Shown piece after piece: positions 12,604-62,006 of a stretch of 64,000 nt of DNA (position 1 is its first letter; each line of letters starts with the position of its first letter). Source of the stretch: an uncultured Alphaproteobacteria bacterium (GTDB taxonomy: Bacteria > Pseudomonadota > Alphaproteobacteria > Rs-D84). The DNA lies in the NCBI GenBank assembly GCA_905234185.1, contig CAJOGC010000005.1, positions 936 through 64,935 of the forward strand. The letters are read 5' to 3'. Made by a program: the position numbers and the translations under genes. The notes beneath the pieces are model-generated. The model was not told the origin of the DNA. It saw only the letters and a list, made by a program, of their open reading frames with translations, and ran no database searches.

Positions 12604-12611
12604 TGTGTGCC

Positions 12612-12937
12612 AGATTCACTATAAGCCGGATTCTGTACATGCCCCGGGCCAGTCATAGAACCATCCCGGGGTAGCGGACATAATTAATCTGCACCCGAAG
12701 TTACCAACGGGTGTCAAGCCCTCTACCCGCCACCTGACTGGGACATGTCAATTGGTGGCCTATTTGAAGTTGCTGCACATAGAGATTGGCCGTTTCAAAC
12801 GATTTTCATCGCATACGTTACTGTTCCTCTTATCGTCGGGTCACCCCGCCAGGCCGTTAGCCTGTATGCCGTCCCATGCAGTCCGGACTTTCCTCCGCCA
12901 CGTTGCCGCGACGGCTATGTCCCGTTCATCTGAACAT
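12612..12937 (-). ncRNA. rnpB: RNase P RNA (bacterial type A)
   Basis: Minus strand contains GGAGGAAAGTCCGGACTGCATGGGACGGCATACAGGCTAACGGCCTGGCGGGGTGACCC… and 3' ACAGAATCCGGCTTATAG (P4 halves AGGAAAGTCCGG / ACAGAATCCGGC). Boundaries are about ±15 nt. Confidence 0.8.
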
Positions 12938-21718: not shown

Positions 21719-21820
21719 TTCATAAAATGGGCTTGATTTGTACTGCATATAAATGATAAAATGTGCACAACAGAGAGATGTATTTTGAAGTCTAAACGCA
21801 CTCATTTTTCGGGTTGTTTT

Positions 21821-24085
21821 ATGCTGGTTGCCTTGGTGGCTCTTGGCTTTGATGCCTTTGCTGTTCAGGCACCGAACCCGCGCGGTTCTTCATCGGCACC
21901 TACTTCGACGGCTCGTTCAACCGATTCGGCAAATGTATCGCGTGTTGCCGTTGGACGTTCGGCCGTCCGTTCACCGGCCCGTGGTGCGATTGTATCAACC
22001 GTCACGCGTGGTGGTGCAACTGTGGCACGGGGTGCATCGGGTACGGTGGCACGTGGTTCGACTGCTCGCACGGGGGTGTCCCCTCATAGTGCGCGTTCCG
22101 CGATTGCAATTGACACCTCTCGCGCCGGAACGGCCCGCGCGACCAAGGTGTATAGTGATATATCCAAGATTGGGGGTGGCTATGCCACCTGTCGCGAATC
22201 GTATGCGACATGCATGGATCAATTCTGTGCGAACGCGAACGACACATATCGTCGCTGTTATTGCAGTTCTCGGTTTACCGAATTTCGTAATACCGAAAAC
22301 GCACTGGACGAAGCAAAAACATTGCTGATGCGGTTCGAGGATAATAACCTTAACGCTGTTGACAAAAGCGCCGCCGAAGTTAACGCCATGTACACCGCCA
22401 CGGTGGGCGAAGCCGCGATAAAAAACGATACCAGTGCGGCGGCAAAAATGCTGGACGAAATAAGCGATTTGTTATCCGGGAAAAAGAAAACAACATATTC
22501 ATCGGGGTTGTCCTCGACTTCTCTGGGTGTTCTGTCTTTTGATTTTTCAACAGACATTGACGACATTTGGTCAGATGGGGGCAATTCTATATTTTCCACC
22601 GGACTTAACAGCCAGAATCTGTCGGAACTTGAAGGGGTCAGCCTGTATAACGCCGCGAACAAACAGTGTACTGATATTATGTCTGGCGATTGCGAAAGTT
22701 CGGCTGTGTTTAATATGGCGCGTTCTTCGTACAGTATTATGATTACCCAGGACTGTAACGCTTACCAGGCGAATGTGGATAAGAAAGTCGAATCTGTTAA
22801 ACAAGCCGTCCGTACCGCGGAAAAATATCTGCGCGAGGCACGACTTGCCGAATATCACTCACACAATAATGCCAATGTTAATGAATGTATTACCAAGGTT
22901 CGTACGGCTTTGACGGCCGACACGGCATGTGGTGCAAATTATAAACGTTGTTTGGACTATACCGGTGCTTATATTAATCAGACCACCGGTGATGCGATTT
23001 ATTCACCCCGGCTGTTCCAGTTAACCGATTTAATCAAATTATCCGGCGTCACTGACGGAAAAAGTGACATGGATGTTCTGGCTCAGAATCCAAAGTTTAA
23101 TGATTTCTTGGAATCACGAAAAATATTTGCCAATGCAGCCTTGGATACATGTCGCGACATTGCGTCCACGGTATGGAATGAGTTCAAACGGACCGCATTA
23201 ATAGAAATCGCCCAGGCCCAAGACGAGAAGATTGAAGAAGTCAAAATGTCATGCGTCAGCACCATGGCCGATTGCTATGATACCCAATCTTCGGCACTAA
23301 AGAGTTTTGATGATACAACCGCACAAATGGCGGGGGCAATATCTGCATACGCAGCAAGACAAATGTGTGTAGATAAGGTTTCGGCCTGTGCCGCGTTATA
23401 TGGGAACGATACCCCATGCCAATTTAATAATGATGGGAAATTAGCAAATGCGAGTTCTTGTGGATTAACGGCTTTACTTAAATTCGTTGACACTGTTGAT
23501 ACTGTTCGCATTACCGAAGGTTGTGAAACCGCATTACAAAATTATGCCAAAGAATTATGTACACCAACATCCGGCACGATTGGATATCCATGGAATTGTC
23601 GATTGATGTCTGCCAAAGAAATTCAAAACAATTTGACCACAATGGCGGGTACATATTGTGATTTGGGTTCGAACGCCAATATGTCTGTCAACACCGAAAC
23701 TATCATAGATGCTTTGGTAAGCGATATATCAATGCAACTTGCCGATGCCATGATGGACCAATGCCAGGCATTGGGCGGATTGTGGATAGAAGGAAACGGC
23801 TTCATCCCGAATAATTACAACGAACTAAAAGTCTATTACAGCACAGTGTACGGCAACAATCAAACATATGTCGAAAACAGCAGATTATATGGCCGTTGCA
23901 TTGAAAGTACAACTCGTGTTCTATGCGAAGCGTATAATACAGATAATGATACAAAAACAACATTGACAACATATGATGCACTTAGAGACACATGTAATTT
24001 TAGTCAGGCATGGTATGAAAAGAAATGCACCGAAGAACTTGGTGGTGTTTGGGAAAATTCAACCTGCTATATTACGGAAGAGTAA
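21821..24085 (+). CDS. Large secreted cysteine-rich protein (about 750 aa) with an N-terminal Arg/Ala/Ser/Thr/Val-rich low-complexity region
   Basis: Signal peptide MLVALVALGFDAFA. About 35 Cys. The N-terminal ~300 nt are locally GC-rich with many overlapping spurious ORFs. The start could also be ATG at 21761. Confidence 0.6.
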   Translation: MLVALVALGFDAFAVQAPNPRGSSSAPTSTARSTDSANVSRVAVGRSAVRSPARGAIVSTVTRGGATVARGASGTVARGSTARTGVSPHSARSAIAIDTSRAGTARATKVYSDISKIGGGYATCRESYATCMDQFCANANDTYRRCYCSSRFTEFRNTENALDEAKTLLMRFEDNNLNAVDKSAAEVNAMYTATVGEAAIKNDTSAAAKMLDEISDLLSGKKKTTYSSGLSSTSLGVLSFDFSTDIDDIWSDGGNSIFSTGLNSQNLSELEGVSLYNAANKQCTDIMSGDCESSAVFNMARSSYSIMITQDCNAYQANVDKKVESVKQAVRTAEKYLREARLAEYHSHNNANVNECITKVRTALTADTACGANYKRCLDYTGAYINQTTGDAIYSPRLFQLTDLIKLSGVTDGKSDMDVLAQNPKFNDFLESRKIFANAALDTCRDIASTVWNEFKRTALIEIAQAQDEKIEEVKMSCVSTMADCYDTQSSALKSFDDTTAQMAGAISAYAARQMCVDKVSACAALYGNDTPCQFNNDGKLANASSCGLTALLKFVDTVDTVRITEGCETALQNYAKELCTPTSGTIGYPWNCRLMSAKEIQNNLTTMAGTYCDLGSNANMSVNTETIIDALVSDISMQLADAMMDQCQALGGLWIEGNGFIPNNYNELKVYYSTVYGNNQTYVENSRLYGRCIESTTRVLCEAYNTDNDTKTTLTTYDALRDTCNFSQAWYEKKCTEELGGVWENSTCYITEE

Positions 24086-44405: not shown

Positions 44406-47046
44406 GTATTATCCTGATGTTATCTTCTTTGACAACCGCATCGCCGAGTGTTCCAAGCGCATCCCACAGCAATGCGTACCATGATTTTTCGTTCGCGTTC
44501 TTGTCCGATGTATGCCCATAGATATAAAGTTCATCCCGGGCGCGCGTCATTGCAACATAAAGCAACCTGTAATATTCGGCAAAACGAATATTCGACAGTG
44601 CGTCTGTTGCGGTTTCAAGATTTACGCTGGGTACCTGGCGTGGAACCCAAAGCCATGCCGGCGGTATATTTGGATCATATTCCATATCTTTTGGCATTAT
44701 GTCCGATGTTATTGGGACAACATTATCGCCCCGCGGAACCCGCAGGGTATCAATCAGAAACACAACCGGTGCTTCCAGTCCCTTGCTGCCATGAACGGTC
44801 GCGATCCGAACACCGGTCGATGCATTTATATCGCGTTTTATTTCGGAACCACCGGTTATGAACCATTTAAGAAAATGTCGCAATGTGCCAGGCTGGGTCC
44901 GTTCGTATGACAGACACAGTGTCATAAATTCTTCTAAGGGGTCTATTACCTGGGGCCCCAATGCGGACACAAAACTTTCCCGCACACCGGAATCAAATAT
45001 CCTTGAAAAAAACGAGTATGGCGCCATGGATGCCGACATATCAACAATAGATTTCAATCGTCCATGCACATCCGGATATTTTTGTTCCAGAGCATCAAAA
45101 ACTGTCATTTCTGATGTATTACCGACGCCATTTTTTGCCGTATTTTTTATTTTACATAAATCAAAAATATCGGCTTCGGTCAATCTGAAAATTGGACTTT
45201 TCAACACACAACATAAACTATAATCATCGGCCGTATTAAGACAGAATCTAACAAGATTCATAAGATCGCGTATTGCCGGAAACATTGGCAAAATAATGCG
45301 GTCTGTGCCAGCAACTTCGATATTTCGTTTCTTTAATGCCGTGACCAAAGGAACCACCATTGGATTACGATGCTGGACAAGCACCATTATGTCCCCTGGT
45401 TTATATTTTCCAGCGTCAAGTATCGATTTTATTTTGTCTGCTATGATTGAAACATATTGCTGGGTGTCGATACCGTCACCTTTTTTGGACATCATTTTTT
45501 GTAATTCGACAAGTCCGTCACCATCGCCACGAAAACAGACGTGATTATTATTGTGAAACCCCGTTGTTGCAATTACATCCGGATTGCCAAAAAACTCGTC
45601 CACTGTATATAAAATCGATGGCAATGAACGGAAACTCTGTGTTAATGGTATTTCACTTATTGTCCGCAAATTAGCCTCTATTTGACGTTTTATATCGTCA
45701 CGACTGGCTGCAAAAGCGCGCGAATCCGCGCCCTGGAAACCATATATCGATTGTTTTGTGTCCCCCACTACAAACAATGTATGTATATCGTGTTTGGTAT
45801 CACCATTTACAAAAAAATCACCGACCAGCATACGCAAAATATCCCAATGCAACGGCGATGTATCCTGGGCTTCATCAACCAAGATATGTGACAACGAAAA
45901 ATTTAATTGCGACAGCACCCAACCCATAACATCCGGTTTGGAAAAAAGTTTGCGTGTGCATAACACCAAATCATCAAAATCCAGCAAATTGCGCTGACGC
46001 TTTATATCACGATAAATATTTGTAAATGCCGCGGCTAAATCAAACAGCGCAACCGAATTCATAAAAATGTCCGCATTTATGTTATATTGATCGACATCGA
46101 AAACACGCGATTGTTCGTTGATCAAAAAACCTTGTTTTTGTATATGTTTTATCGGAGTTCTGTCTTTTGTCAAATATGCCGTCTTGTATTCATCAAAATC
46201 TATTGTTTTATCAATATACTTTTTTGTTAAATCAAACACCTTCATAAGGTACGCCGGCTGATTACCATCCGCTTTTATCTTGGCATCCAAGAAATCTGCT
46301 ATTCCGCGCAGTTCAGATTCCGGTACATCTATAACAGGGACCGAATCCAGTTTAAGAAATTTTCGCGTTGTATCAATAAAGTATTTGCGATACTCTTCGA
46401 TATTATCAACCATAAAAAAGTATTCGTATTGTTCGCTTAAAGTTTTCAGCAAAAGAGAAAGTCGTTGTTCACTTAACACATTCACAATACGCGCGAACGC
46501 ATCGCCAACACGACCATATTTAGCTGGTTCCAAATCAGACGCGTTTATAAGACGATCAAATGCCTCGTACTGCAAAACACGTTGATTCACATCAGACACC
46601 AATGTCCATGATGGGGATATGCCCGCCTCTAGCGGGAAGCGGCGCAATATTTCTTCGCAAAAACTGTGTATCGTTTTGATTTCAAGATTATCCGGATGAT
46701 CGATATACCAAAAGAAAACAGATCGTGCATGAGCAATATCATCAGCCGTCGCAGGTTTATTAAGCGCAACATCTTTCAATAATTCCACTAATTCTTCATC
46801 TGAGGCAACCGCCCAATCCCGCAATGCCCGCAAAATACGGTTGCGCATTTCACCCGCCCCGGCATTAGTGTATGTAAGGCATAATATTCCACTGTGTTCG
46901 ATATCATCAGATCTGAACAAAATTCGCAATAACCGCTGGACCAGAACACTTGTTTTGCCGGTACCAGCATTCGCCTGGACCCACACATTTCTGGACGGAT
47001 CCGCGGCATTGTCTTGTTCCGGTGATAATTCTGGTTTTTTGTTCAT
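44395..47046 (-). CDS. addA: UvrD-like SF1 helicase corresponding to the AddA N-terminal 880 aa
   Basis: Motifs GTGKTSVLVQRL and TIHSFC plus UvrD helicase motifs. No addB adjacent. Confidence 0.82.
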   Translation of the reverse strand: MNKKPELSPEQDNAADPSRNVWVQANAGTGKTSVLVQRLLRILFRSDDIEHSGILCLTYTNAGAGEMRNRILRALRDWAVASDEELVELLKDVALNKPATADDIAHARSVFFWYIDHPDNLEIKTIHSFCEEILRRFPLEAGISPSWTLVSDVNQRVLQYEAFDRLINASDLEPAKYGRVGDAFARIVNVLSEQRLSLLLKTLSEQYEYFFMVDNIEEYRKYFIDTTRKFLKLDSVPVIDVPESELRGIADFLDAKIKADGNQPAYLMKVFDLTKKYIDKTIDFDEYKTAYLTKDRTPIKHIQKQGFLINEQSRVFDVDQYNINADIFMNSVALFDLAAAFTNIYRDIKRQRNLLDFDDLVLCTRKLFSKPDVMGWVLSQLNFSLSHILVDEAQDTSPLHWDILRMLVGDFFVNGDTKHDIHTLFVVGDTKQSIYGFQGADSRAFAASRDDIKRQIEANLRTISEIPLTQSFRSLPSILYTVDEFFGNPDVIATTGFHNNNHVCFRGDGDGLVELQKMMSKKGDGIDTQQYVSIIADKIKSILDAGKYKPGDIMVLVQHRNPMVVPLVTALKKRNIEVAGTDRIILPMFPAIRDLMNLVRFCLNTADDYSLCCVLKSPIFRLTEADIFDLCKIKNTAKNGVGNTSEMTVFDALEQKYPDVHGRLKSIVDMSASMAPYSFFSRIFDSGVRESFVSALGPQVIDPLEEFMTLCLSYERTQPGTLRHFLKWFITGGSEIKRDINASTGVRIATVHGSKGLEAPVVFLIDTLRVPRGDNVVPITSDIMPKDMEYDPNIPPAWLWVPRQVPSVNLETATDALSNIRFAEYYRLLYVAMTRARDELYIYGHTSDKNANEKSWYALLWDALGTLGDAVVKEDNIRIIHGK

Positions 47047-47141
47047 TTATGCCCTTGCTTTATGAAAAAGATTCTAGTATAAATCATTACGAACTGCAAG
47101 AGCGATATTACATATCGTTAATATTTCGGGGGGAAAGACAA

Positions 47142-49079
47142 ATGGAAGGTGTTTTATCAAGCAATATTTTCGTGTATATTTGTGGTGGATTAGGATTTTT
47201 ATTAATAATCGCGTTAATCGCATTGTTTTTCATTTCACGCAAATCTCAACTGGTTATGCAATCTTTATTGGATATTATGTTGCGCCCAGAAAGTGCGCGC
47301 GTTGGCGACGCGACCCGTGTATTAAACTCCATTATGGCCACGGAAATCGCAAAAATAGAACAAAATTTTCGCATAATGTGCGAAACCATGAACGGTCAAA
47401 TCGCACATGCAAACGAACTTGAAAACCAACTGACCAAGCAAAACGAAAAATTGCTGTCTTTGGCCGACGCGGCGACAAAAAAAATGGCCCAGATGTCCGA
47501 CAGATTGGACAACACGCTTAACGGTATGAATACGATTGTCGGTTCACAGTCATGGAATGATGTCACAAATGCATCAGACCGGTTTTCGACCAATGTCAAT
47601 GAGTTGCTTAATAAAATTGATAAAACAACGAACGATACAACCGACCGCATCACCCAGATTCAACAGCAAATAGATTCCTGGGTTGAAACCAGCACCGATT
47701 TAAGTGGCCGGCTGGGCACTGAATTTGAATCTAATGCGACCCAGATGACCGATATCACACAAAAAGCGGCAACAATGCAACAACAACTTGAATCTTTGGC
47801 GCAGACGACCGCGGACGGGTTCACAAATGTCAAAAATGCATCGGCCGAATATACCGATATCATGGAAAAGAATAATGAAATGCTGGATAACCATCTTAAT
47901 AAACTTGATGCATTTTCCAAAATGTCAAAAAAACAGTTAGCCAGTCAAACAAATATTATAACCAACACCGCAAATGTTGTCGCCGGCCAGGTCCGACTGA
48001 CCGAGACATCCATTGAAAAACAAATTCGCAAATTATCCGACGCTGTTGACGCTTTGACCGCGTCCGCCACAGAAACCGAGGGGTCTGTGCGTGGGCTATC
48101 AACCGAATTAACCAATTTAACCAATCGGTTCAACCACGAAATCAAAGACTTTGCAACAGAAGTTGTTTCGGAATTAAAGACCGTGTCCGGGGTCGCAAAT
48201 ATTACACTTGAAAACACAAAAACCGCGGCAAACGCGTTTTCAGAGTCTGTTCGCACAATGGGAACCGGTGTCCGCGAAACTTTGATTGAAATGAATACCG
48301 CGCACACACAATTAACAGGCCAATCAGAAACGCTGATTAAAATGTCACGTGAAACCACGGAACAATTGCAACCACTGTCTGAACTTATCGAAAAGTATTA
48401 CGCCGCCCTGCCCGACCTGTCGCGTGATTCCGTGGCTGCGGGTGAAACGCTTGGTCGAATTGTCGCAGAATTAAATACCAGTATGGAAATGATGAAATCC
48501 ACGGTTAATGAATCAACCGATGCAATTTCCAAGTCGGCAACTCAGTTAGAAGAACTGGCCGGCGATTCAAGACAGCAAATGATTGATTTAATGTCGGACT
48601 ATGCCAAGGCCGTTGACACCATGCAAACACTGAATAAACAGATGATGGTGGCACGCGCGACGGCACCTATGGACGCGATTAAATCCACCCCGACGGACAC
48701 CCAGTATGGCCGCGTGAGCACAAGCGATTTCATTAAACAAAGCGAAAAAGTTTTTGGAAAGTTGCACGAACAATCAATTGATTTAACACGCGCGACCGGC
48801 GTCGACATCCCAGACAATATATGGAAGGCATATCATGACGGCGATACCGCTATATTTTCCAAATGGTTGGCTAAAATGCTAACCGCGGCGGATAAAAAGC
48901 AAATCCGTGACATGTTGAAACGCGACAGTGTTTTCCGGTCCCAGTCGTCACAATTTGTACGCAGTTTTGATAAAATAATGTCTGCATCGGAATCTGTGGA
49001 CAACGCAGAAAAAGTTGCGACGGCGTTGCTAAAAACCGACCTGGGACGGATTTATACCGCACTGAAGGGAAACATCTGA
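47142..49079 (+). CDS. Membrane-anchored long coiled-coil protein (645 aa)
   Basis: N-terminal TM (IFVYICGGLGFLLIIALIALFFI) followed by about 600 aa of heptad-like Q/N/T/L-rich sequence. RBS GGGAAAG. Confidence 0.55.
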   Translation: MEGVLSSNIFVYICGGLGFLLIIALIALFFISRKSQLVMQSLLDIMLRPESARVGDATRVLNSIMATEIAKIEQNFRIMCETMNGQIAHANELENQLTKQNEKLLSLADAATKKMAQMSDRLDNTLNGMNTIVGSQSWNDVTNASDRFSTNVNELLNKIDKTTNDTTDRITQIQQQIDSWVETSTDLSGRLGTEFESNATQMTDITQKAATMQQQLESLAQTTADGFTNVKNASAEYTDIMEKNNEMLDNHLNKLDAFSKMSKKQLASQTNIITNTANVVAGQVRLTETSIEKQIRKLSDAVDALTASATETEGSVRGLSTELTNLTNRFNHEIKDFATEVVSELKTVSGVANITLENTKTAANAFSESVRTMGTGVRETLIEMNTAHTQLTGQSETLIKMSRETTEQLQPLSELIEKYYAALPDLSRDSVAAGETLGRIVAELNTSMEMMKSTVNESTDAISKSATQLEELAGDSRQQMIDLMSDYAKAVDTMQTLNKQMMVARATAPMDAIKSTPTDTQYGRVSTSDFIKQSEKVFGKLHEQSIDLTRATGVDIPDNIWKAYHDGDTAIFSKWLAKMLTAADKKQIRDMLKRDSVFRSQSSQFVRSFDKIMSASESVDNAEKVATALLKTDLGRIYTALKGNI

Positions 49080-55392: not shown

Positions 55393-56493
55393 ATGAAATT
55401 TTTCAAGAAAATTGCTCTTGGCGGCGGTTTAATGTTGGCAATTGGTACAACTAGTAACAAAGCATTTGCCCAGAGCAACAAATCAATCACCTTTCGTGAC
55501 ACCATTATTGCGCCATACAACGTTTCCACACGCGTAATACCCATTGAATTGGGAGAAAAAATAAAGAAAATATGTTCTAGCGAAACAGCCCCTAGCCGTA
55601 AATACACCGTATCTGGAACCGTTGTTGCAAATATGTTATGGGACTATGCAGAATACGTTAACGACAGCACCGTTATCAATTATAGCGAATCCGACTGTAC
55701 CGTATATGGAACTAATGGTGTAATGGTGTATAACATTGACACAACTGGTGATGGCTTAGCCGATAAAAGCGTACAATTTCCAGTCGACATTCGTAATCCC
55801 AATAAACAAACCAAATATGATAAACGTGGCAAAATAATAACATGCAATGTCAACGAATATGATAATCGTGGTGGTATGCCAATAACTAAACAGGTTTTGG
55901 TTAAAGGTGTTAATCGCCGTAAAGCACCGGATAAGCATAAATATTATGTTCGCGACTCTGGTGATGATGTCTTTGAAATTTCCGGTCGGATTGTTGCACA
56001 AAATTGGGTATCTGAATGGTGGATTACCTCTGCAGATTGGGGGAACGGCATTGTGTCGTATGGTGGCGACATAGAAGAAGCTGATTTAGTAACAATTGCA
56101 TACTTTGTAGATGTGGACGGCAATGGTATTAGTGATATATGTTTACAATACATAAAACATATTTCAGATCCAAGAGTTGCAACATCATTCATAGGTAAAA
56201 ATGTATCTTGTGAAATAAATCGTAACAAGATAAATGAATATGATTTAGATAATCCTAAATACTATAATGCTATGCCTATGCATGACAATATGAATGACAT
56301 TATTCAAAATGAAATTGGCGTCGCCTATATATTAAATCCAGAAAAATCTGATGTTTGGAGCGGCAAAATATCGTACACGCCGTATAATCCTGATGCCATT
56401 TTACAATCATTTATCACACCAGAGGTTCTGAAGAAGAAACAAATTGCCTATATGCGATATATGCAAAAACAAGCAGACAAAAAACAACATTGA
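55393..56493 (+). CDS. Secreted hypothetical protein (366 aa)
   Basis: Signal peptide MKFFKKIALGGGLMLAIGTTSNKAFA. No recognisable domain. Confidence 0.5.
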   Translation: MKFFKKIALGGGLMLAIGTTSNKAFAQSNKSITFRDTIIAPYNVSTRVIPIELGEKIKKICSSETAPSRKYTVSGTVVANMLWDYAEYVNDSTVINYSESDCTVYGTNGVMVYNIDTTGDGLADKSVQFPVDIRNPNKQTKYDKRGKIITCNVNEYDNRGGMPITKQVLVKGVNRRKAPDKHKYYVRDSGDDVFEISGRIVAQNWVSEWWITSADWGNGIVSYGGDIEEADLVTIAYFVDVDGNGISDICLQYIKHISDPRVATSFIGKNVSCEINRNKINEYDLDNPKYYNAMPMHDNMNDIIQNEIGVAYILNPEKSDVWSGKISYTPYNPDAILQSFITPEVLKKKQIAYMRYMQKQADKKQH

Positions 56494-56524: not shown

Positions 56525-56613
56525 TGGCGGAGCGTATAGGACTCGAACCTATGGACCGCTATAACACGGTCACGGATTAGCAATCCGCTGCATTACCACT
56601 CTGCCAACGCTCC
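56525..56613 (-). tRNA. tRNA-Ser (anticodon GCU)
   Basis: Reverse complement GGAGCGTTGGCAGAGTGGTAATGCAGCGGATTGCTAATCCGTGACCGTGTTATAGCGGTCCATAGGTTCGAGTCCTATACGCTCCGCCA. Long variable arm. Confidence 0.9.
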
Positions 56614-56744
56614 GAATGGTGAACGGTATTATACAGAAACAAAAAATAAATGCAAGCGTGAAAAACGCGAATATAATACAATCATTCAGGCATATTGTAA
56701 TTTACCTTGAAAAGTCGTAAAAATATTCTATATTTAGTTTCGCT

Positions 56745-58502
56745 ATGAAAGAATATATTTTGCCTTTTCGTGATTTGGTCGTGAATCCTGGTTTAACCGT
56801 TCCGATTTATATTGATAATCCGCTGTCTGTGTCGTGTATAGAAGCCGCAAGCAAAAACGGTGGCCGTATCGTCCTTGTTGCACAGCACTGTTGGGGTTAT
56901 CCCGCCAACGAGGTTGATATATACAAGGTTGGCACAATCGGCGAAATCGCCCAGGTTTTACGCATGCCGGACGGTTCATTGCACGCAATTGTTCGCACCA
57001 CAAGCGCGGTCCGTCTTTCCGGCATTGTGGTTGAAAACGGCATCTTTATGGGCGACATAACACCTATCGAAATACTAGACGACAGTGAATTTGACCAAAC
57101 TATCGCCCTGCGCGATAAAATAGCCAATAATATTCAATCAATGTCCACGGCCCGCAAACTTAAAATCGACAAATTACGCACTGTTATTCAGTCTTATCCT
57201 TTGCCGGCCTTTGTTGATACCGTTGTTCAAATGCTGGACATCGATACAGATGTCGCGATTAATATTCTTTGTGCAACGACATGGCGCGAAAAACTAATCA
57301 TTTTGCTGGAGCAAGTCAATTTGATGGCGGAAACCATGAAAATCGAGGATTCTATTAATCGTCGCATTAATCAACAAATGGAGAAAGGCCGTCGAGAGGC
57401 GATTTTACAGGAAAAAATGCGCGCAATTCAGGTCGAAATGGGCGAAAACACCGAAGAAATGGATGCAGAAAACCTGCGCGAACGCATCGAAAAGTCCCAC
57501 ATGTCTGCGGACGCCAAAGAAAAAGCACTGTCTGAATGGCGACGCATGCGCACCCTGTCCCCGATGTCGAACGAAGGCGGACTGTTGAAGGCATACTTGG
57601 ACGAAATGTTGTCTATGCCATGGAATAAGTATGACAAGCAGCCCATAGATATTCAGGCGGCCCGCGCGATTCTTGACAGTGAACATTCCGGAATGGATGC
57701 GGTCAAAGAACGCATTTTGGAACATATTGCCGTTATGAAAAAAACCGGCAAAAACAGTGGCAGCATTTTATGTTTCGTCGGCGCGCCCGGTGTTGGAAAA
57801 ACATCGTTGGGGAAATCTATCGCCGCCGCACTTGGTCGAAAATATCAACGCATATCACTTGGCGGTATTTCTGACGAGGCGCATTTCCGCGGGCACCGCA
57901 AGACCTATATCGGTGCACAAACGGGCCGCATTATGGACGCGCTTAAACGAAGCAAATCAAATAACCCCGTAATCGTGTTGGACGAAATTGATAAAATGAC
58001 GCGTGATTTTCGTGGTGATCCGGAATCTGCATTGTTGGAAATATTGGACCCGGAACAAAACAAAAACTTCCGCGATCATTATCTTGAGGTTGATTTTGAT
58101 CTGTCTAATGTTCTTTTTATTGCAACAGCAAACAGTCTGAACTTTTCCAATGCGTTAAAGGATCGTATGGAAATCATCGAAATTCCGGGATACAGCATGG
58201 ATGAAAAGGTTCGCATTGCCCGCGAACACTTGATTAAACGCGCGGCAAATGACACCGGATGGGCGGTTGAAAACATCACCATTTCGGACGATGCAATTCG
58301 CCATATCATTCAAAATTACACCAGCGAAGAAGGTGTTCGCCAATTACAACGCGAATTGACCGCTATTCTGCGCCGTGAATTGTTAAAGAACGACGGCAAC
58401 GACAAACCAACGGATTTTACACCAAATAAAATCGACGATTTATTATCACTGCAGCATTCCGCTGGATTTAGTAAAAAAATAGGATTTGGAGTAAGATTAT
58501 GA
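56745..58502 (+). CDS. lon: Lon-like protein with a Lon N-terminal domain and an AAA+ module that ends before the serine-protease domain
   Basis: Walker A GAPGVGKTS, Walker B VIVLDEIDKM, sensor-1 FIATANS. The ORF stops at 585 aa. Downstream ORFs are not protease-like. Confidence 0.78.
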   Translation: MKEYILPFRDLVVNPGLTVPIYIDNPLSVSCIEAASKNGGRIVLVAQHCWGYPANEVDIYKVGTIGEIAQVLRMPDGSLHAIVRTTSAVRLSGIVVENGIFMGDITPIEILDDSEFDQTIALRDKIANNIQSMSTARKLKIDKLRTVIQSYPLPAFVDTVVQMLDIDTDVAINILCATTWREKLIILLEQVNLMAETMKIEDSINRRINQQMEKGRREAILQEKMRAIQVEMGENTEEMDAENLRERIEKSHMSADAKEKALSEWRRMRTLSPMSNEGGLLKAYLDEMLSMPWNKYDKQPIDIQAARAILDSEHSGMDAVKERILEHIAVMKKTGKNSGSILCFVGAPGVGKTSLGKSIAAALGRKYQRISLGGISDEAHFRGHRKTYIGAQTGRIMDALKRSKSNNPVIVLDEIDKMTRDFRGDPESALLEILDPEQNKNFRDHYLEVDFDLSNVLFIATANSLNFSNALKDRMEIIEIPGYSMDEKVRIAREHLIKRAANDTGWAVENITISDDAIRHIIQNYTSEEGVRQLQRELTAILRRELLKNDGNDKPTDFTPNKIDDLLSLQHSAGFSKKIGFGVRL

Positions 58503-58876
58503 GCGAACAAGCAACAAAAACAGCCACATACCCCGATCTGGAAAATGGCCAAATGATAACTATCATAACCGATAAAGAAACGGCCAAAGCCATCCATGAA
58601 TACAACAGTATTTGTAATCAAATTCAGTCATTCAAAATAGATTCTCAGGTGATAACTGGTCTTAGTGGCCAGATTTGTGAAATATACAAAGCACAATCAC
58701 CAAAACTGAAAATCTGGTGCATAAGAAAATATCTGCCCTTGATTGACGACGATGTCTATGAATGTCGTATCGAAAGAAAGAACGACAAAGCAAATAAAGA
58801 CCCTGAATTGATTCTGGGTGGTGTGGAATACTTGTATTATAAGCTGCTTAGTAAAAACAGCGGGCGGGCAAAATGA
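58499..58876 (+). CDS. Hypothetical 125-aa protein (ATGA overlap with the lon-like gene)
   Basis: ORF only. Confidence 0.4.
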   Translation: MSEQATKTATYPDLENGQMITIITDKETAKAIHEYNSICNQIQSFKIDSQVITGLSGQICEIYKAQSPKLKIWCIRKYLPLIDDDVYECRIERKNDKANKDPELILGGVEYLYYKLLSKNSGRAK

Positions 58877-59418
58877 TTCTTGTACTGAACACATCCGGGG
58901 CCGATTTGGAATTTGTTTTGGATGACAAATATGCCCGCGTTTCTGTTGAAAAACAATCGGTTGCATTGCCCACCGAAACGGCGCGTTTTATCGCCAAATG
59001 TGGGGCAACATGGTCCGACATTTCCGCAATTGGTATCGTTGTTGGCCCGGGAAGTTTTACTGGTATCCGCTTGGGCATCGCCTATGTTAAGGGCTTAGGT
59101 CTGGGGCTGGACATCCCCGTTGTTCCAATAAACGCATTTGAATTGTATCTTGCGCAGACACCGGACGCGTTTGTCGCGATTGATTCCGGACATGGCGATT
59201 TCTTTGTTGGGGCCAAAAATTTACCGCCCTGTATTATGTCAATCGATGAAATCGAAACCAAACAAATGGAATGGCCACGCACGGTTGGACATCGCCCGTT
59301 TGACTTGAAATTAGGAACGCAAATCGTTCAAAATAAATTGGCACACCAAGGTAATGAACCAATTGTCCCGATGTATTTGCGTCCCAGTTATGTTGAAACT
59401 AATAAAAAGGAAAAATAA
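58873..59418 (+). CDS. tsaB: tRNA threonylcarbamoyladenosine biosynthesis protein TsaB (YeaZ)
   Basis: Motif …GPGSFTGIRLGIA…. Usual tsaB-rimI pairing. Confidence 0.8.
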   Translation: MILVLNTSGADLEFVLDDKYARVSVEKQSVALPTETARFIAKCGATWSDISAIGIVVGPGSFTGIRLGIAYVKGLGLGLDIPVVPINAFELYLAQTPDAFVAIDSGHGDFFVGAKNLPPCIMSIDEIETKQMEWPRTVGHRPFDLKLGTQIVQNKLAHQGNEPIVPMYLRPSYVETNKKEK

Positions 59419-59419
59419 A

Positions 59420-59749
59420 ATGGCAAACATTATTCAAAAAATATTTTTATCAAAATTCGAATGCTCTCTTATTGATGCGATAAATAAATCTGATGTGAAA
59501 ATGACGCACAACGATGATGTACAGCACATGTTTTCAACTACTTCGTACAGCATCAATAATAACAAAATGAATATTATGGCCGTACATCAGTGGCATCATG
59601 CCCAGGGCGATAACTATACACTTAATATCACCAGTGATTCTGAGTCACCACGAACACCAAACAGATATCTTGCCGATGATATTGTTGCCCATAAATTTGT
59701 ACGAAAAATATTTATGAGAATGCAACGCAAATATGCAAAACAAAAATAA
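59420..59749 (+). CDS. Small paralogue 1 of a 3-gene tandem family (110 aa)
   Basis: N-terminal MANIIQKIFLSKFECSLIDAINKSD is conserved with the next two ORFs. Confidence 0.5.
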   Translation: MANIIQKIFLSKFECSLIDAINKSDVKMTHNDDVQHMFSTTSYSINNNKMNIMAVHQWHHAQGDNYTLNITSDSESPRTPNRYLADDIVAHKFVRKIFMRMQRKYAKQK

Positions 59750-59759
59750 CGAGAATAAA

Positions 59760-60137
59760 ATGGCAAAAATCTTTCAACGTATGTTTTTATCTAAAAATAA
59801 AATTCGCATACTGGATATGATCGAAAATAATGCGGATAAAATAACGTATGATTATTACGAACACTCTTATTTTCCATACCATGAATTTACGATAAAAACA
59901 CCGACAAGCGTCCTTACATCTACATCGACCAGGGACAGATATTTGTTTAGCCGTACTTATATTTCACAATATAATTTCGCTGAAACTTTGCCAAACGGAA
60001 CCGTACACGAAGAATCCGAAGAGTTCACGCCTTTTGCTAACCGGGTTCATTCGGCTATGTTCCGCGCATTTATAAAGGCCAAGAGTATTGAGGCAATACA
60101 TAAAAAACAAGAAGATTTCCTGAAAAAACAAAGATAA
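59760..60137 (+). CDS. Small paralogue 2 (125 aa)
   Basis: N-terminus MAKIFQRMFLSKNKIRILDMIENNADKITY. Confidence 0.5.
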   Translation: MAKIFQRMFLSKNKIRILDMIENNADKITYDYYEHSYFPYHEFTIKTPTSVLTSTSTRDRYLFSRTYISQYNFAETLPNGTVHEESEEFTPFANRVHSAMFRAFIKAKSIEAIHKKQEDFLKKQR

Positions 60138-60160
60138 ATAAGTAAAAAGAGATATTAATT

Positions 60161-60520
60161 ATGGCAAGTTTTATTCACAAAATTTGGCTCACACCTGTTC
60201 AGTGCAAAGTATTGGATTTTATCAAAGAAAACGCTGATGCGGTTGAATACAAAAAAGGCAAAACGGTCGCTATTTTACCGGGTTATAACGAATATACCGT
60301 AAACCATGTATTTATACACGCAGACAATAAAGCATTACACGCGACACTTATCGCGCCCGAAAATAAGTCCCAGGATTTTAAATCGACATATTCATTTTCG
60401 TGCAAAAAACCGTGCACTAAGAAAAAATGCCCATTGCTTAATGCGACACAATCTGCTCATCACGGATTGACGACGGGTTTGCAAAAATGGTTTATGCCAG
60501 GATGTATAACAACTATATAG
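60161..60520 (+). CDS. Small paralogue 3 (119 aa)
   Basis: N-terminus MASFIHKIWLTPVQCKVLDFIKENADAVEY. C-terminal Cys-rich tail (CKKPCTKKKC). Confidence 0.5.
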   Translation: MASFIHKIWLTPVQCKVLDFIKENADAVEYKKGKTVAILPGYNEYTVNHVFIHADNKALHATLIAPENKSQDFKSTYSFSCKKPCTKKKCPLLNATQSAHHGLTTGLQKWFMPGCITTI

Positions 60521-60573: not shown

Positions 60574-60960
60574 ATGTTAAATAAGCTTGCCAATCTTCAT
60601 AAACAATGCTTCCCCGACAAACCATGGTCGGCATCTGATTTTGCAGAATTAAAGAAATCGGGGTGTGAAATTTTGGCGTCCGATAACGGATTTATAATAT
60701 GGCGAACAGTCGCAGACGAAGCCGAAATAATATCCATTGGGGTTGCCCCGAATGCGCGCCGTTCTGGTATCGCCGGTGCCATGATTTTGCTTATGGAACA
60801 AGAATTGAAAAAATCAGGTATTGTCAATGTGTTTTTGGAAGTTTCTGAAGTGAATATTCCGGCAAAAAAACTATATGAAAAATACGGGTTTGTACCGACC
60901 GGAAAAAGGCCCAAATATTACGATGGTACCGATGCAATTATCATGACCAAAAGGCTGTGA
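60574..60960 (+). CDS. rimI: Ribosomal-protein-alanine N-acetyltransferase (GNAT)
   Basis: 128 aa with a GNAT fold motif (…RRSGIAGAMI…). Position downstream of tsaB. Confidence 0.78.
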   Translation: MLNKLANLHKQCFPDKPWSASDFAELKKSGCEILASDNGFIIWRTVADEAEIISIGVAPNARRSGIAGAMILLMEQELKKSGIVNVFLEVSEVNIPAKKLYEKYGFVPTGKRPKYYDGTDAIIMTKRL

Positions 60961-62006
60961 AAATGAACGAAAAATCATTGTCAAAAACACACGGCAAAAT
61001 CCTGCAACGGGTTGCAAAAACAGATACAAATATACACGGGATAAGAAAGGCCGAAACAGTCCCTGCCCGCAAATTAAGCCTTGTCATATTTGGCGGTGAA
61101 AGAACTGTGAAAAACAAAGATGCAAACTGGTATATGTCGATGTTCGAGCGTCTTTTGCATTTTTATAATATACACGATGTCAACATATATTCTGCCGTTT
61201 ATGATTTCGAATCCACCAACAGGAAACCAGAACGCACAAATGCGTTTATTGCGGCCGGTCATAAAATAGCCAGGATGTATGGGGCCACAACACCCATTGA
61301 TACGCAATACATAGATGATTTATATCGAACCGTTGTCCGACCGCGTTTTATAAATAAAAACAATGAAATACTGTCAGAAATTGACGCAATAAATAATGTT
61401 CGACAACTGATTATCTTTGACCATTGTCATGGTGCCACACCGGTGCGCGCGTTCCAAGATATTATGGCATCAGATATGGAAAAATCCGGATATACACCAT
61501 CAACGATACGAAAGATTATGAAAAACCTGTTGGTTATTCAACACGCCCCCGTTGCGCCCCTGGAAAAATCGCGATTTAACACCGTCTCTTTTATGTCTGC
61601 GAATGACACACTCATGAATTTTTACAATAAAATTTCAGAATACATAGCAGATAATAATGCCGATGTATTACCGTCTTATATTTCATTGGGTAATTTTTTT
61701 GTCACCCACGCATTCACATACCAATACTTGGACGAACATTCTATTATTGGGCTGGTTCCGAATGAAATTTATGGTATGTTAACGCCGGACGGTGAAATAA
61801 TAATGGCTGCGGAACGCAATGCGATAATAAATGGCATTCGTGCCGCCCAGCAAGGCGCCCCGATGCCAACAATCCGCGAATTAATCGCCCCGGCATCTGA
61901 TAAAGATGCTATTAAACCAGACTTTGATACATTGATGCAGAACGGCGAATCCCTTATGAACATGATGCGTTATGATATGGCCCAGGAAAAATCGAAAGAA
62001 AGATAA
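60957..62006 (+). CDS. Hypothetical 349-aa protein
   Basis: ORF only. Convergent with the Pif1-like helicase, with a 5-nt gap. Confidence 0.45.
   Translation: MKMNEKSLSKTHGKILQRVAKTDTNIHGIRKAETVPARKLSLVIFGGERTVKNKDANWYMSMFERLLHFYNIHDVNIYSAVYDFESTNRKPERTNAFIAAGHKIARMYGATTPIDTQYIDDLYRTVVRPRFINKNNEILSEIDAINNVRQLIIFDHCHGATPVRAFQDIMASDMEKSGYTPSTIRKIMKNLLVIQHAPVAPLEKSRFNTVSFMSANDTLMNFYNKISEYIADNNADVLPSYISLGNFFVTHAFTYQYLDEHSIIGLVPNEIYGMLTPDGEIIMAAERNAIINGIRAAQQGAPMPTIRELIAPASDKDAIKPDFDTLMQNGESLMNMMRYDMAQEKSKER

Follow-up and report, generated by a model that had tools for sequence, protein, structure and literature searches.

Lon is the textbook AAA+ protease, in which motor and peptidase are fused in one chain, and according to the published classification all Lons contain both an ATPase and a protease domain (PMC9569914). 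A stretch of 64,000 nucleotides from an uncultured alphaproteobacterium (GenBank assembly GCA_905234185.1, contig CAJOGC010000005.1, positions 936 to 64,935; the whole stretch is called the window here) contains a LonA-derived gene that encodes an AAA+ ATPase without the S16 peptidase domain. We refer to this gene and its product of 585 amino acids as lon'. The locus raises the question whether lon' is a damaged copy of an ordinary lon or a gene in its own right, and, in the latter case, how it arose and what the Lon motor may do by itself. No description of a natural, conserved protease-less LonA was found in the literature searched.

Domain content and conservation of lon'

The lon' protein matched the Pfam families LON_substr_bdg (9.6e-22; 78 bits against a cutoff of 28.7), AAA (1.1e-21), and Lon_lid (2.4e-13), and there was no Pfam match to Lon_C (PF05362, S16). 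The NCBIfam model TIGR00763, 'endopeptidase La', was matched at model positions 2-564 of 795 with an E value of 5e-162. The score of 541.1 bits was below the curated equivalog cutoff of 608.05, as the final third of the model has no counterpart in lon'. The best match among solved structures was E. coli Lon (6u5z, E 4e-128), with residues 5-569 of the query aligned to residues 13-581. Therefore, the stop codon of lon' corresponds to about residue 597 of the E. coli protein, inside the first beta-strand of the protease (P) domain. Walker A, the pore loop, Walker B, sensor-1, the Arg finger, and sensor-2 (GVR, 530-532) were all present, and the residues K352, Y388, D413, E414, N463, R474, and R532 were invariant in an alignment of full-length Lons with both protease-less clades described below. 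An AlphaFold2 (AF2) model based on a 34-sequence alignment showed a Lon-like N domain, a long helix, and the AAA+ module, with a mean predicted local distance difference test (pLDDT) score of 78. The initial annotation of the window, made from the letters alone, had described a complete Lon N domain and an intact AAA+ module with Walker A and B, sensor-1, and Arg finger, followed by a stop at residue 585 where the S16 domain should begin; the Pfam results, the motif alignment, and the alignment to LonA, in which all ATPase motifs are retained, agree with this description. On sequence grounds, lon' is LonA by descent, but it lacks the proteolytic domain and does not reach the curated score, so that the label endopeptidase La is not appropriate for it.

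More than 120 protein clusters with 76-100% identity to lon' were returned from a search space of 5.8 billion proteins. Among the 120 clusters listed, 118 were 585 or 588 amino acids long, all without Lon_C, and the named entries bear no annotation at present other than 'AAA family ATPase [Alphaproteobacteria bacterium]'. In a collection of species-representative genomes, six metagenome-assembled genomes from yak rumen, cecum, and other gut sources, representing six GTDB species (loci L001-L006), carried lon' at 64-88% identity over residues 1-585. The next matches fell to 43% identity and were ordinary Lons of 780-830 amino acids. In all six loci, the open reading frame (ORF) ended at the same point with the peptide ..KKIGFG[VA]R[LIMV], and an identical lon' gene was present on independent assemblies of the same organism. 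Pairwise ratios of nonsynonymous to synonymous substitutions (dN/dS) of lon' were 0.06-0.18, with dS at or near saturation. Between the window and L001, the identity was 88% for lon', 79% for tsaB, and 87% for rimI, so that lon' is at least as conserved as its neighbours.

Remnants of the peptidase domain were searched for with a hidden Markov model (HMM) built from 58 Lon protease domains. It was applied, without filters, to the window and to 13 related loci, each translated in six frames. No match to Lon_C was obtained in any frame of the whole 64-kb window or of the 13 loci. In the controls, the real domain was found at E values of 1e-80 to 1e-102, and simulated decayed, frameshifted copies were detected up to about 40% nucleotide substitution.

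These results bear directly on the proposal that lon' is a pseudogene, or an ordinary lon with a recent nonsense or frameshift mutation or an assembly error. Sporadic truncated Lon entries do exist, e.g. P0143 and P0200 (619 amino acids) with a partial Lon_C, as well as fragments at contig ends. However, lon' has the same stop across independent assemblies and species, its dN/dS values are low, and no peptidase remnant lies downstream; in several species, tsaB abuts the lon' stop. Neither relaxed selection, nor variable stops, nor residual downstream coding was observed. The initial annotation had considered both decay and sequencing error as threats to its reading; the six-frame search speaks against the former, and the latter is countered by more than 120 clusters and six species that share the length of 585-588 amino acids and the stop, with the gene under purifying selection. 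The proposal of a pseudogene or error is thus refuted by the comparative data, and its remaining probability is negligible. Together, these findings show that lon' is a real, conserved gene under purifying selection, without any peptidase remnant in the regions searched.

Descent of lon' in two gut lineages

A search for deeper homologues among 1.8 billion representatives of 50% clusters yielded two further protease-less relatives, P0121 (593 amino acids, 51% identity) and P0122 (580 amino acids, 49%), neither of which has Lon_C. At a similar distance, a full-length relative was found, P0125 (769 amino acids, 49% identity), in which Lon_C is complete and includes both the PKDGPSAG serine and the lysine motif downstream of it. 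In a neighbour-joining tree of the N and AAA region, the protease-less proteins of the alphaproteobacterial clade were monophyletic, with P0125 as their sister. The gene order is lon(769)-tsaB-rimI on the P0125 contig and lon'(580)-tsaB on the P0122 contig, which is also how these genes are arranged in the window and in L001-L006. In every member of the clade, including the full-length L081, lon or lon' is followed by tsaB; among 74 other lon loci that were fetched, tsaB/rimI followed lon in none, and clpP was upstream in 57. Because lon' shares the lon-tsaB-rimI slot with P0125, it is the positional orthologue of the lon gene of this clade. Phylogeny and gene order indicate that the peptidase-coding third of lon was removed in place, once, before this clade of uncultured gut and rumen Alphaproteobacteria diversified.

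The initial annotation had correctly located a tRNA-Ser gene immediately upstream of lon' on the opposite strand, and had taken this adjacency as the mark of a rearranged neighbourhood. The latter was not borne out. The tRNA-Ser(GCT) gene is found upstream of lon' solely in the window (minus strand) and in L001 (plus strand, L001:9806-9894), and it is absent in L002-L006, which share the truncation. What is conserved instead is the order lon-tsaB-rimI, which is present around the nearest full-length lon, too. The opposite strands of the tRNA gene in the window and in L001 imply a small local inversion between these close relatives.

The gene content of the window is alphaproteobacterial, with TrcR in the window and GcrA in a relative. 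The chromosome of L004 (OZ246409.1) has a size of only 716,531 bp, and therefore strong genome reduction has taken place in a part of the clade at least. The L004 record is titled 'uncultured Muribaculaceae bacterium'; its lon'-tsaB-rimI region matches the alphaproteobacterial clade (74% identity), and the title is probably a taxonomic mislabel.

Protease-less Lons were also found in a second lineage. P0169 (615 amino acids) and four relatives (626-627 amino acids, 61-66% identical to P0169) are likewise without Lon_C. Their nearest full-length relatives (at most 57% identity) are 'endopeptidase La' proteins of about 800 amino acids from Muribaculaceae/Bacteroidales, and the identity of the group to the window protein is about 39%. 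The genes of the group are complete and lie inside contigs. Their neighbourhood consists of tig, DUF179, lon, convergent genes for CN_hydrolase and PAD_porph, and a GH43-related gene, and the same arrangement surrounds the full-length lon of a related organism. The protease-less proteins end with ..TFG[RH]VGFS plus 3-4 residues, whereas the full-length relatives have ..NEFPGVVTGLAWT. In the tails of both lineages, a basic residue is followed by [IV]GF and then by G or S. Judged by the shared neighbourhood, the gene in Bacteroidales is the product of a separate in-place loss at the same domain boundary as in the alphaproteobacterial clade.

The origin of these genes could also be explained in a different way, namely as extra Lon-like paralogues that serve as specialised regulators beside a normal full-length lon. 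The Bacteroidales carriers would agree with this proposal, as they resemble ordinary glycan-degrading gut bacteria and not organisms with reduced genomes. However, in both lineages the truncated gene is found, by synteny, precisely where the nearest relatives have their full-length lon, which fits a modification of the resident lon rather than a duplication. A paralogue thus seems unlikely.

A further difference between the clades was observed in the lid motif at amino acids 525-532. The canonical sequence YTRE(A/S)GVR is changed to YTSEEGVR in the window clade, and P0121 and P0122 have N at the changed Arg position. The Arg is retained in the full-length sister P0125 and in the Bacteroidales protease-less group. 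The change could reflect a lost contact with the protease domain.

The C-terminal tail and possible functions of the ATPase

Amino acids 570-585 of lon' were without confident structure in the AF2 model (pLDDT about 30, <50), and they contain an IGF tripeptide at positions 579-581. I-G-F-G was invariant in 118/118 alphaproteobacterial clusters, with variable flanking positions, and the more distant L006, P0121, and P0122 retain K-I-G-F. In full-length Lons, the same position is occupied by the P domain's first strand, whose canonical sequence is [VI]-G-x-V-x-G-L-A-W, and a Phe after that glycine was found in 1 of 329 canonical Lons. The motif [IVLM]GF was present within the last 12 residues of every protease-less Lon found, with the exception of P0036 (555 amino acids, alphaproteobacterial; taken as partial). 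Among about 380 other proteins, a single one had it.

The codons used for IGFG vary across species (Ile ATA/ATT/ATC, Gly GGA/GGT/GGG, Phe TTT/TTC), and the spacing from the tail to the next start codon differs as well. Therefore, selection acts on the tail peptide, and not on a downstream ribosome-binding site. A conservation merely via overlap with such a site was rejected for these reasons, and also because the Bacteroidales genes have no co-directional downstream gene. An origin of the tail as a frameshift product of canonical lon was rejected, too, as the other frames of five full-length lon genes yielded nothing similar.

Very probably, lon' is a functional descendant of LonA that has lost its own peptidase domain and acts as an ATP-dependent unfoldase. 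What has been kept of LonA is the N domain, which serves to recognise substrates, the long helical region, and an AAA+ ring module that is catalytically complete and includes the pore-loop tyrosine. By analogy with LonA and other AAA+ translocases, lon' would assemble into a nucleotide-stabilised hexamer, the N domains would bind substrates, and these would be threaded through the pore at the expense of ATP. Because no peptidase chamber is attached, the polypeptide would at the exit either be released, resulting in a remodelling or chaperone activity, or be handed over to a peptidase that docks in trans. From the architecture of Lon, the tail would be expected to leave the ring at its exit face, in the place once taken by the protease domain. 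The initial annotation had proposed an unfoldase or chaperone and not a protease. The first half stands insofar as lon' is a genuine Lon-derived AAA+ protein without S16, whereas 'not a protease' is not established, because the IGF-type tail leaves a peptidase in trans possible.

One version of the unfoldase is a stand-alone chaperone or remodelling ATPase without a peptidase partner, in which the tail would serve otherwise, such as in ring stabilisation, autoinhibition, or adaptor binding. All motor motifs are retained, and there is no peptidase nearby in the window or the related loci, both of which favour this version. In addition, Lon that has no proteolytic activity still works in a chaperone-like manner in the mitochondria of yeast, and ClpX is able to function in the absence of ClpP. 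A resemblance of the N-terminal region of LonA to ClpB, described in a published study (PMC6722904), points in the same direction. However, a stand-alone ATPase leaves unexplained that the first beta-strand was converted to an invariant basic-[IV]GF-[GS] motif near the C-terminus in two unrelated lineages. We regard this version as a serious candidate, with somewhat less than an even chance of being correct.

The second version, which is our preferred specific reading, assigns a role to the tail: it might be a docking peptide comparable to the IGF loop in ClpX, and ClpP is the foremost candidate for its partner. The IGF loops of ClpX, ClpA, and ClpC dock into hydrophobic H sites of ClpP (PMC9035409). 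The ClpX genes in the fetched loci encode the loops ..TSIGFGADV.. and ..KKTMGFGAKI... We propose only tentatively that the lon' tail is a ClpP docking peptide. With equal caution, it is conceivable that two unrelated gut lineages turned the vestigial first strand of the P domain into an IGF/VGF docking peptide that delivers Lon-type substrates to ClpP, which would yield a hybrid 'Lon-ClpP' protease. If true, the hybrid would join two AAA+ protease systems that have so far been seen as separate.

Several observations weigh against the unfoldase in general or against docking in particular. The [IV]G of the tail was inherited from the first beta-strand of the P domain, and only the F and the truncation are new. 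When a 13-residue position-specific scoring matrix was derived from ClpX loops, the tail did not score above background peptides; the matrix was not discriminating, and therefore the likeness to ClpX rests on the four-residue core, its invariance, and its convergent appearance. A second lon, Lon_C, clpP, and hslV were all absent from the window, as determined by Pfam searches of large and candidate ORFs and by tblastn with E. coli ClpP and HslV probes. Likewise, clpP was missing from the roughly 10 kb around lon' in each of the related loci; as a positive control, the ClpP probe detected clpP upstream of lon in 57 loci with a full-length gene. The probe for HslV, for which there was no positive control, matched nothing in the window or in any fetched locus. 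Lastly, P domains form planar hexamers in Lon structures (PMC9569914), and the assembly of a ring without P domains is an assumption.

A partner could also be the lost domain itself. In a split Lon, the S16 domain would be encoded elsewhere as a separate polypeptide that re-associates with the lon' ATPase, and the tail would perhaps complete the beta-sheet of the P domain as the missing strand. This idea is in line with the position of the truncation, which in both lineages spares the P domain's first strand and nothing more of it. However, no Lon_C was detected in the window, in a further 10 kb adjoining it, or in the sequence that flanks the 13 related loci, and the tail has diverged from the canonical strand by losing GLAW and gaining F. 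Furthermore, a search with the Lon_C of P0125 yielded solely fragments of ordinary lon that included the first strand, and no complementary half; this is weak evidence, because short fragments dominated the matches. A split Lon is thus quite improbable, and an ATPase that lost its peptidase domain altogether remains our preferred explanation.

Neighbouring genes and comparison with known systems

The features of lon' and of the surrounding genes are compiled in Table 1. As the initial annotation had stated, an ATGA overlap (58499-58502) joins lon' to an ORF of 125 amino acids, and tsaB is the next gene; the latter is also reached via an ATGA overlap (58873-58876). Upstream of lon', promoter-like sites were no more numerous than in shuffled sequences.

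Table 1. Positions of lon', its domains and motifs, and neighbouring genes, in window coordinates unless a locus is named
Feature	Position	Strand	Remarks
lon' (LonA-derived AAA+ ATPase gene, without S16 peptidase domain)	56745..58502	+	585 aa, ATG start, TGA stop
Lon N-terminal substrate-binding domain, aa 5-191	56757..57317	+	Pfam PF02190; beta-rich fold, then long helix aa 180-231 in AF2 model
AAA+ large subdomain, aa 342-478	57768..58178	+	Pfam PF00004
Walker A GAPGVGKTS, aa 346-354	57780-57806	+	motif alignment
Pore-1 loop GHRKTYIG, aa 383-390	57891-57914	+	motif alignment
Walker B VLDEIDK, aa 411-417	57975-57995	+	motif alignment
Sensor-1 ATAN, aa 460-463	58122-58133	+	motif alignment
Arg finger DRMEII, aa 473-478	58161-58178	+	motif alignment
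Lon lid (AAA+ small subdomain), aa 505-544	58257..58376	+	Pfam PF22667; includes sensor-2 Arg532
Flexible C-terminal tail, aa 570-585, ending KKIGFGVRL	58452..58499	+	IGFG core at 58479-58490
ORF of 125 aa between lon' and tsaB	58499..58876	+	lineage-specific, fast-evolving
tsaB (t6A complex dimerisation subunit)	58873..59418	+	TIGR03725, 4e-22
rimI-like GNAT acetyltransferase gene	60574..60960	+	Pfam PF00583; synteny; third member of conserved lon-tsaB-rimI
tRNA-Ser(GCT)	56525..56613	-	131 bp upstream of lon'
Promoter-like site TTGAAA-16-TATATT	56707..56734	+	10 bp 5' of lon' start codon; weak evidence
Bacteroidales protease-less lon	L085:2905-4752, L087:4114-5994		615-627 aa; neighbourhood shared with L088
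Bacteroidales full-length lon	L088:5352-7751		799 aa; neighbourhood shared with L085 and L087

The 125-amino-acid ORF had no match in Pfam, NCBIfam, or PHROG. Its sole orthologue is in L001, with 39% identity compared with 88% for lon', and the AF2 model was unusable (pLDDT 44). In other species, the slot between lon' and tsaB contains unrelated ORFs of 93, 133, or 199 amino acids, or nothing. As a conserved partner of lon', this ORF was therefore rejected. Across the window, L001, L003, L004, and L089, the slot is occupied by small ORFs of 125, 127, 133, 199, and 93 amino acids, or by none; the gap that the peptidase-coding DNA left behind may favour the gain of small lineage-specific ORFs as a hotspot.

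Variation was also seen further downstream. The interval between tsaB and rimI (window 59354..60520) contains three ORFs of 131, 134, and 119 amino acids, and comparable ORFs are present at L001:12684-14789 and L005:4437-5240. They form a variable array of small paralogues with a shared N-terminal motif, ..IFQRMFLSK..ILD.I..NA..I.Y, and without family matches; about five copies are present in L001, two in L005, and none in L002, L004, and L006. In L003 (12173-13294), tsaB encodes 373 amino acids, roughly double what is usual, and includes a Gly/Pro-rich insertion. The rimI stop is overlapped by an ORF of 349 amino acids (window 60957..62006) without a Pfam or PHROG match, which is kept after rimI in L001 (49%), L004 (37%), and L005 (33%); a gene for 359 amino acids is at the same position in L089. 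Between cysS and tRNA-Ser, an ORF of 366 amino acids (window 55393..56493) had no family match and no homologue in related loci, and it appears to be species-specific.

Elsewhere, the window contains the housekeeping genes secA, dnaE, dnaK, rpoD, tsaD, xseA, and recN, as well as a bacterial class A RNase P RNA on the minus strand (12606..12933, 182 bits). Two large ORFs, at 21761..24085 (774 amino acids) and 46950..49079 (709 amino acids), have no Pfam domain; the second had solely weak PHROG matches, to a PmgS-like head-morphogenesis family and to a tape-measure family. An extension of 10 kb beyond the window contains rho, ssb, arginase, and helicase genes.

In summary, a resident lon has long been kept without its peptidase in a widespread gut and rumen clade and, independently, in Bacteroidales. 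This amounts to a natural experiment on what a Lon motor does alone, and on whether a chaperone or remodelling role can be selected apart from proteolysis. The convergent IGF-type tail leads to the testable hypothesis that AAA+ motors can switch peptidase partners in evolution.

Among known systems, LonA (E. coli Lon, 6u5z; MEROPS S16) is the homologue and positional orthologue of lon', and both share the N domain, the long helix, the AAA+ module, the lid, and all ATPase and pore motifs. In contrast, lon' is without the whole S16 domain with its Ser-Lys dyad, has the new C-terminal IGFG tail, and is 43-49% identical to the closest full-length Lons. In its mode of action, lon' is predicted to be most like a free unfoldase of the ClpX type. 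Like ClpX (and ClpA/ClpC), it would be an AAA+ unfoldase without a covalently attached peptidase, and it has [IV]-G-F, with basic residues before it and G or S after it, in a flexible segment that would lie at the exit face. The ClpX loops ..QKGTSIGFGADV.. and ..SKKTMGFGAKI.. are close to the lon' tail ..FSKKIGFGVRL. However, lon' is homologous to ClpX solely via the AAA+ fold, and its motif is at the extreme C-terminus and not in an internal loop. Membership in the ClpX/ClpA family was not supported, as all strong matches were to Lon, and the match to ClpA (E 2.6e-10) was confined to the generic AAA+ core.

HslU and the proteasomal ATPases (PAN, Mpa, Rpt) are hexameric AAA+ rings that dock on and open a separate peptidase by flexible C-terminal tails. 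The concept of docking by a C-terminal tail is thus common to them and, potentially, to lon', whereas the lon' tail is neither HbYX nor HslU-like. ClpB/Hsp104 are AAA+ unfoldases that work without a peptidase, but lon' differs by its single AAA+ ring and by the presence of a Lon N domain. ClpB is not known to have an IGF-type peptidase-docking tripeptide, whereas lon' has an IGF tripeptide in its tail. The N-terminal helical region of LonA is structurally related to ClpB (PMC6722904). LonC of Meiothermus taiwanensis, a Lon-like protease without ATP-powered unfolding activity (PMC3391209), is likewise a natural derivative of Lon in which one activity of the two has been lost. LonC and lon' mirror each other: in LonC, the peptidase was kept and the ATPase is dead, whereas in lon', the ATPase was kept and there is no peptidase.

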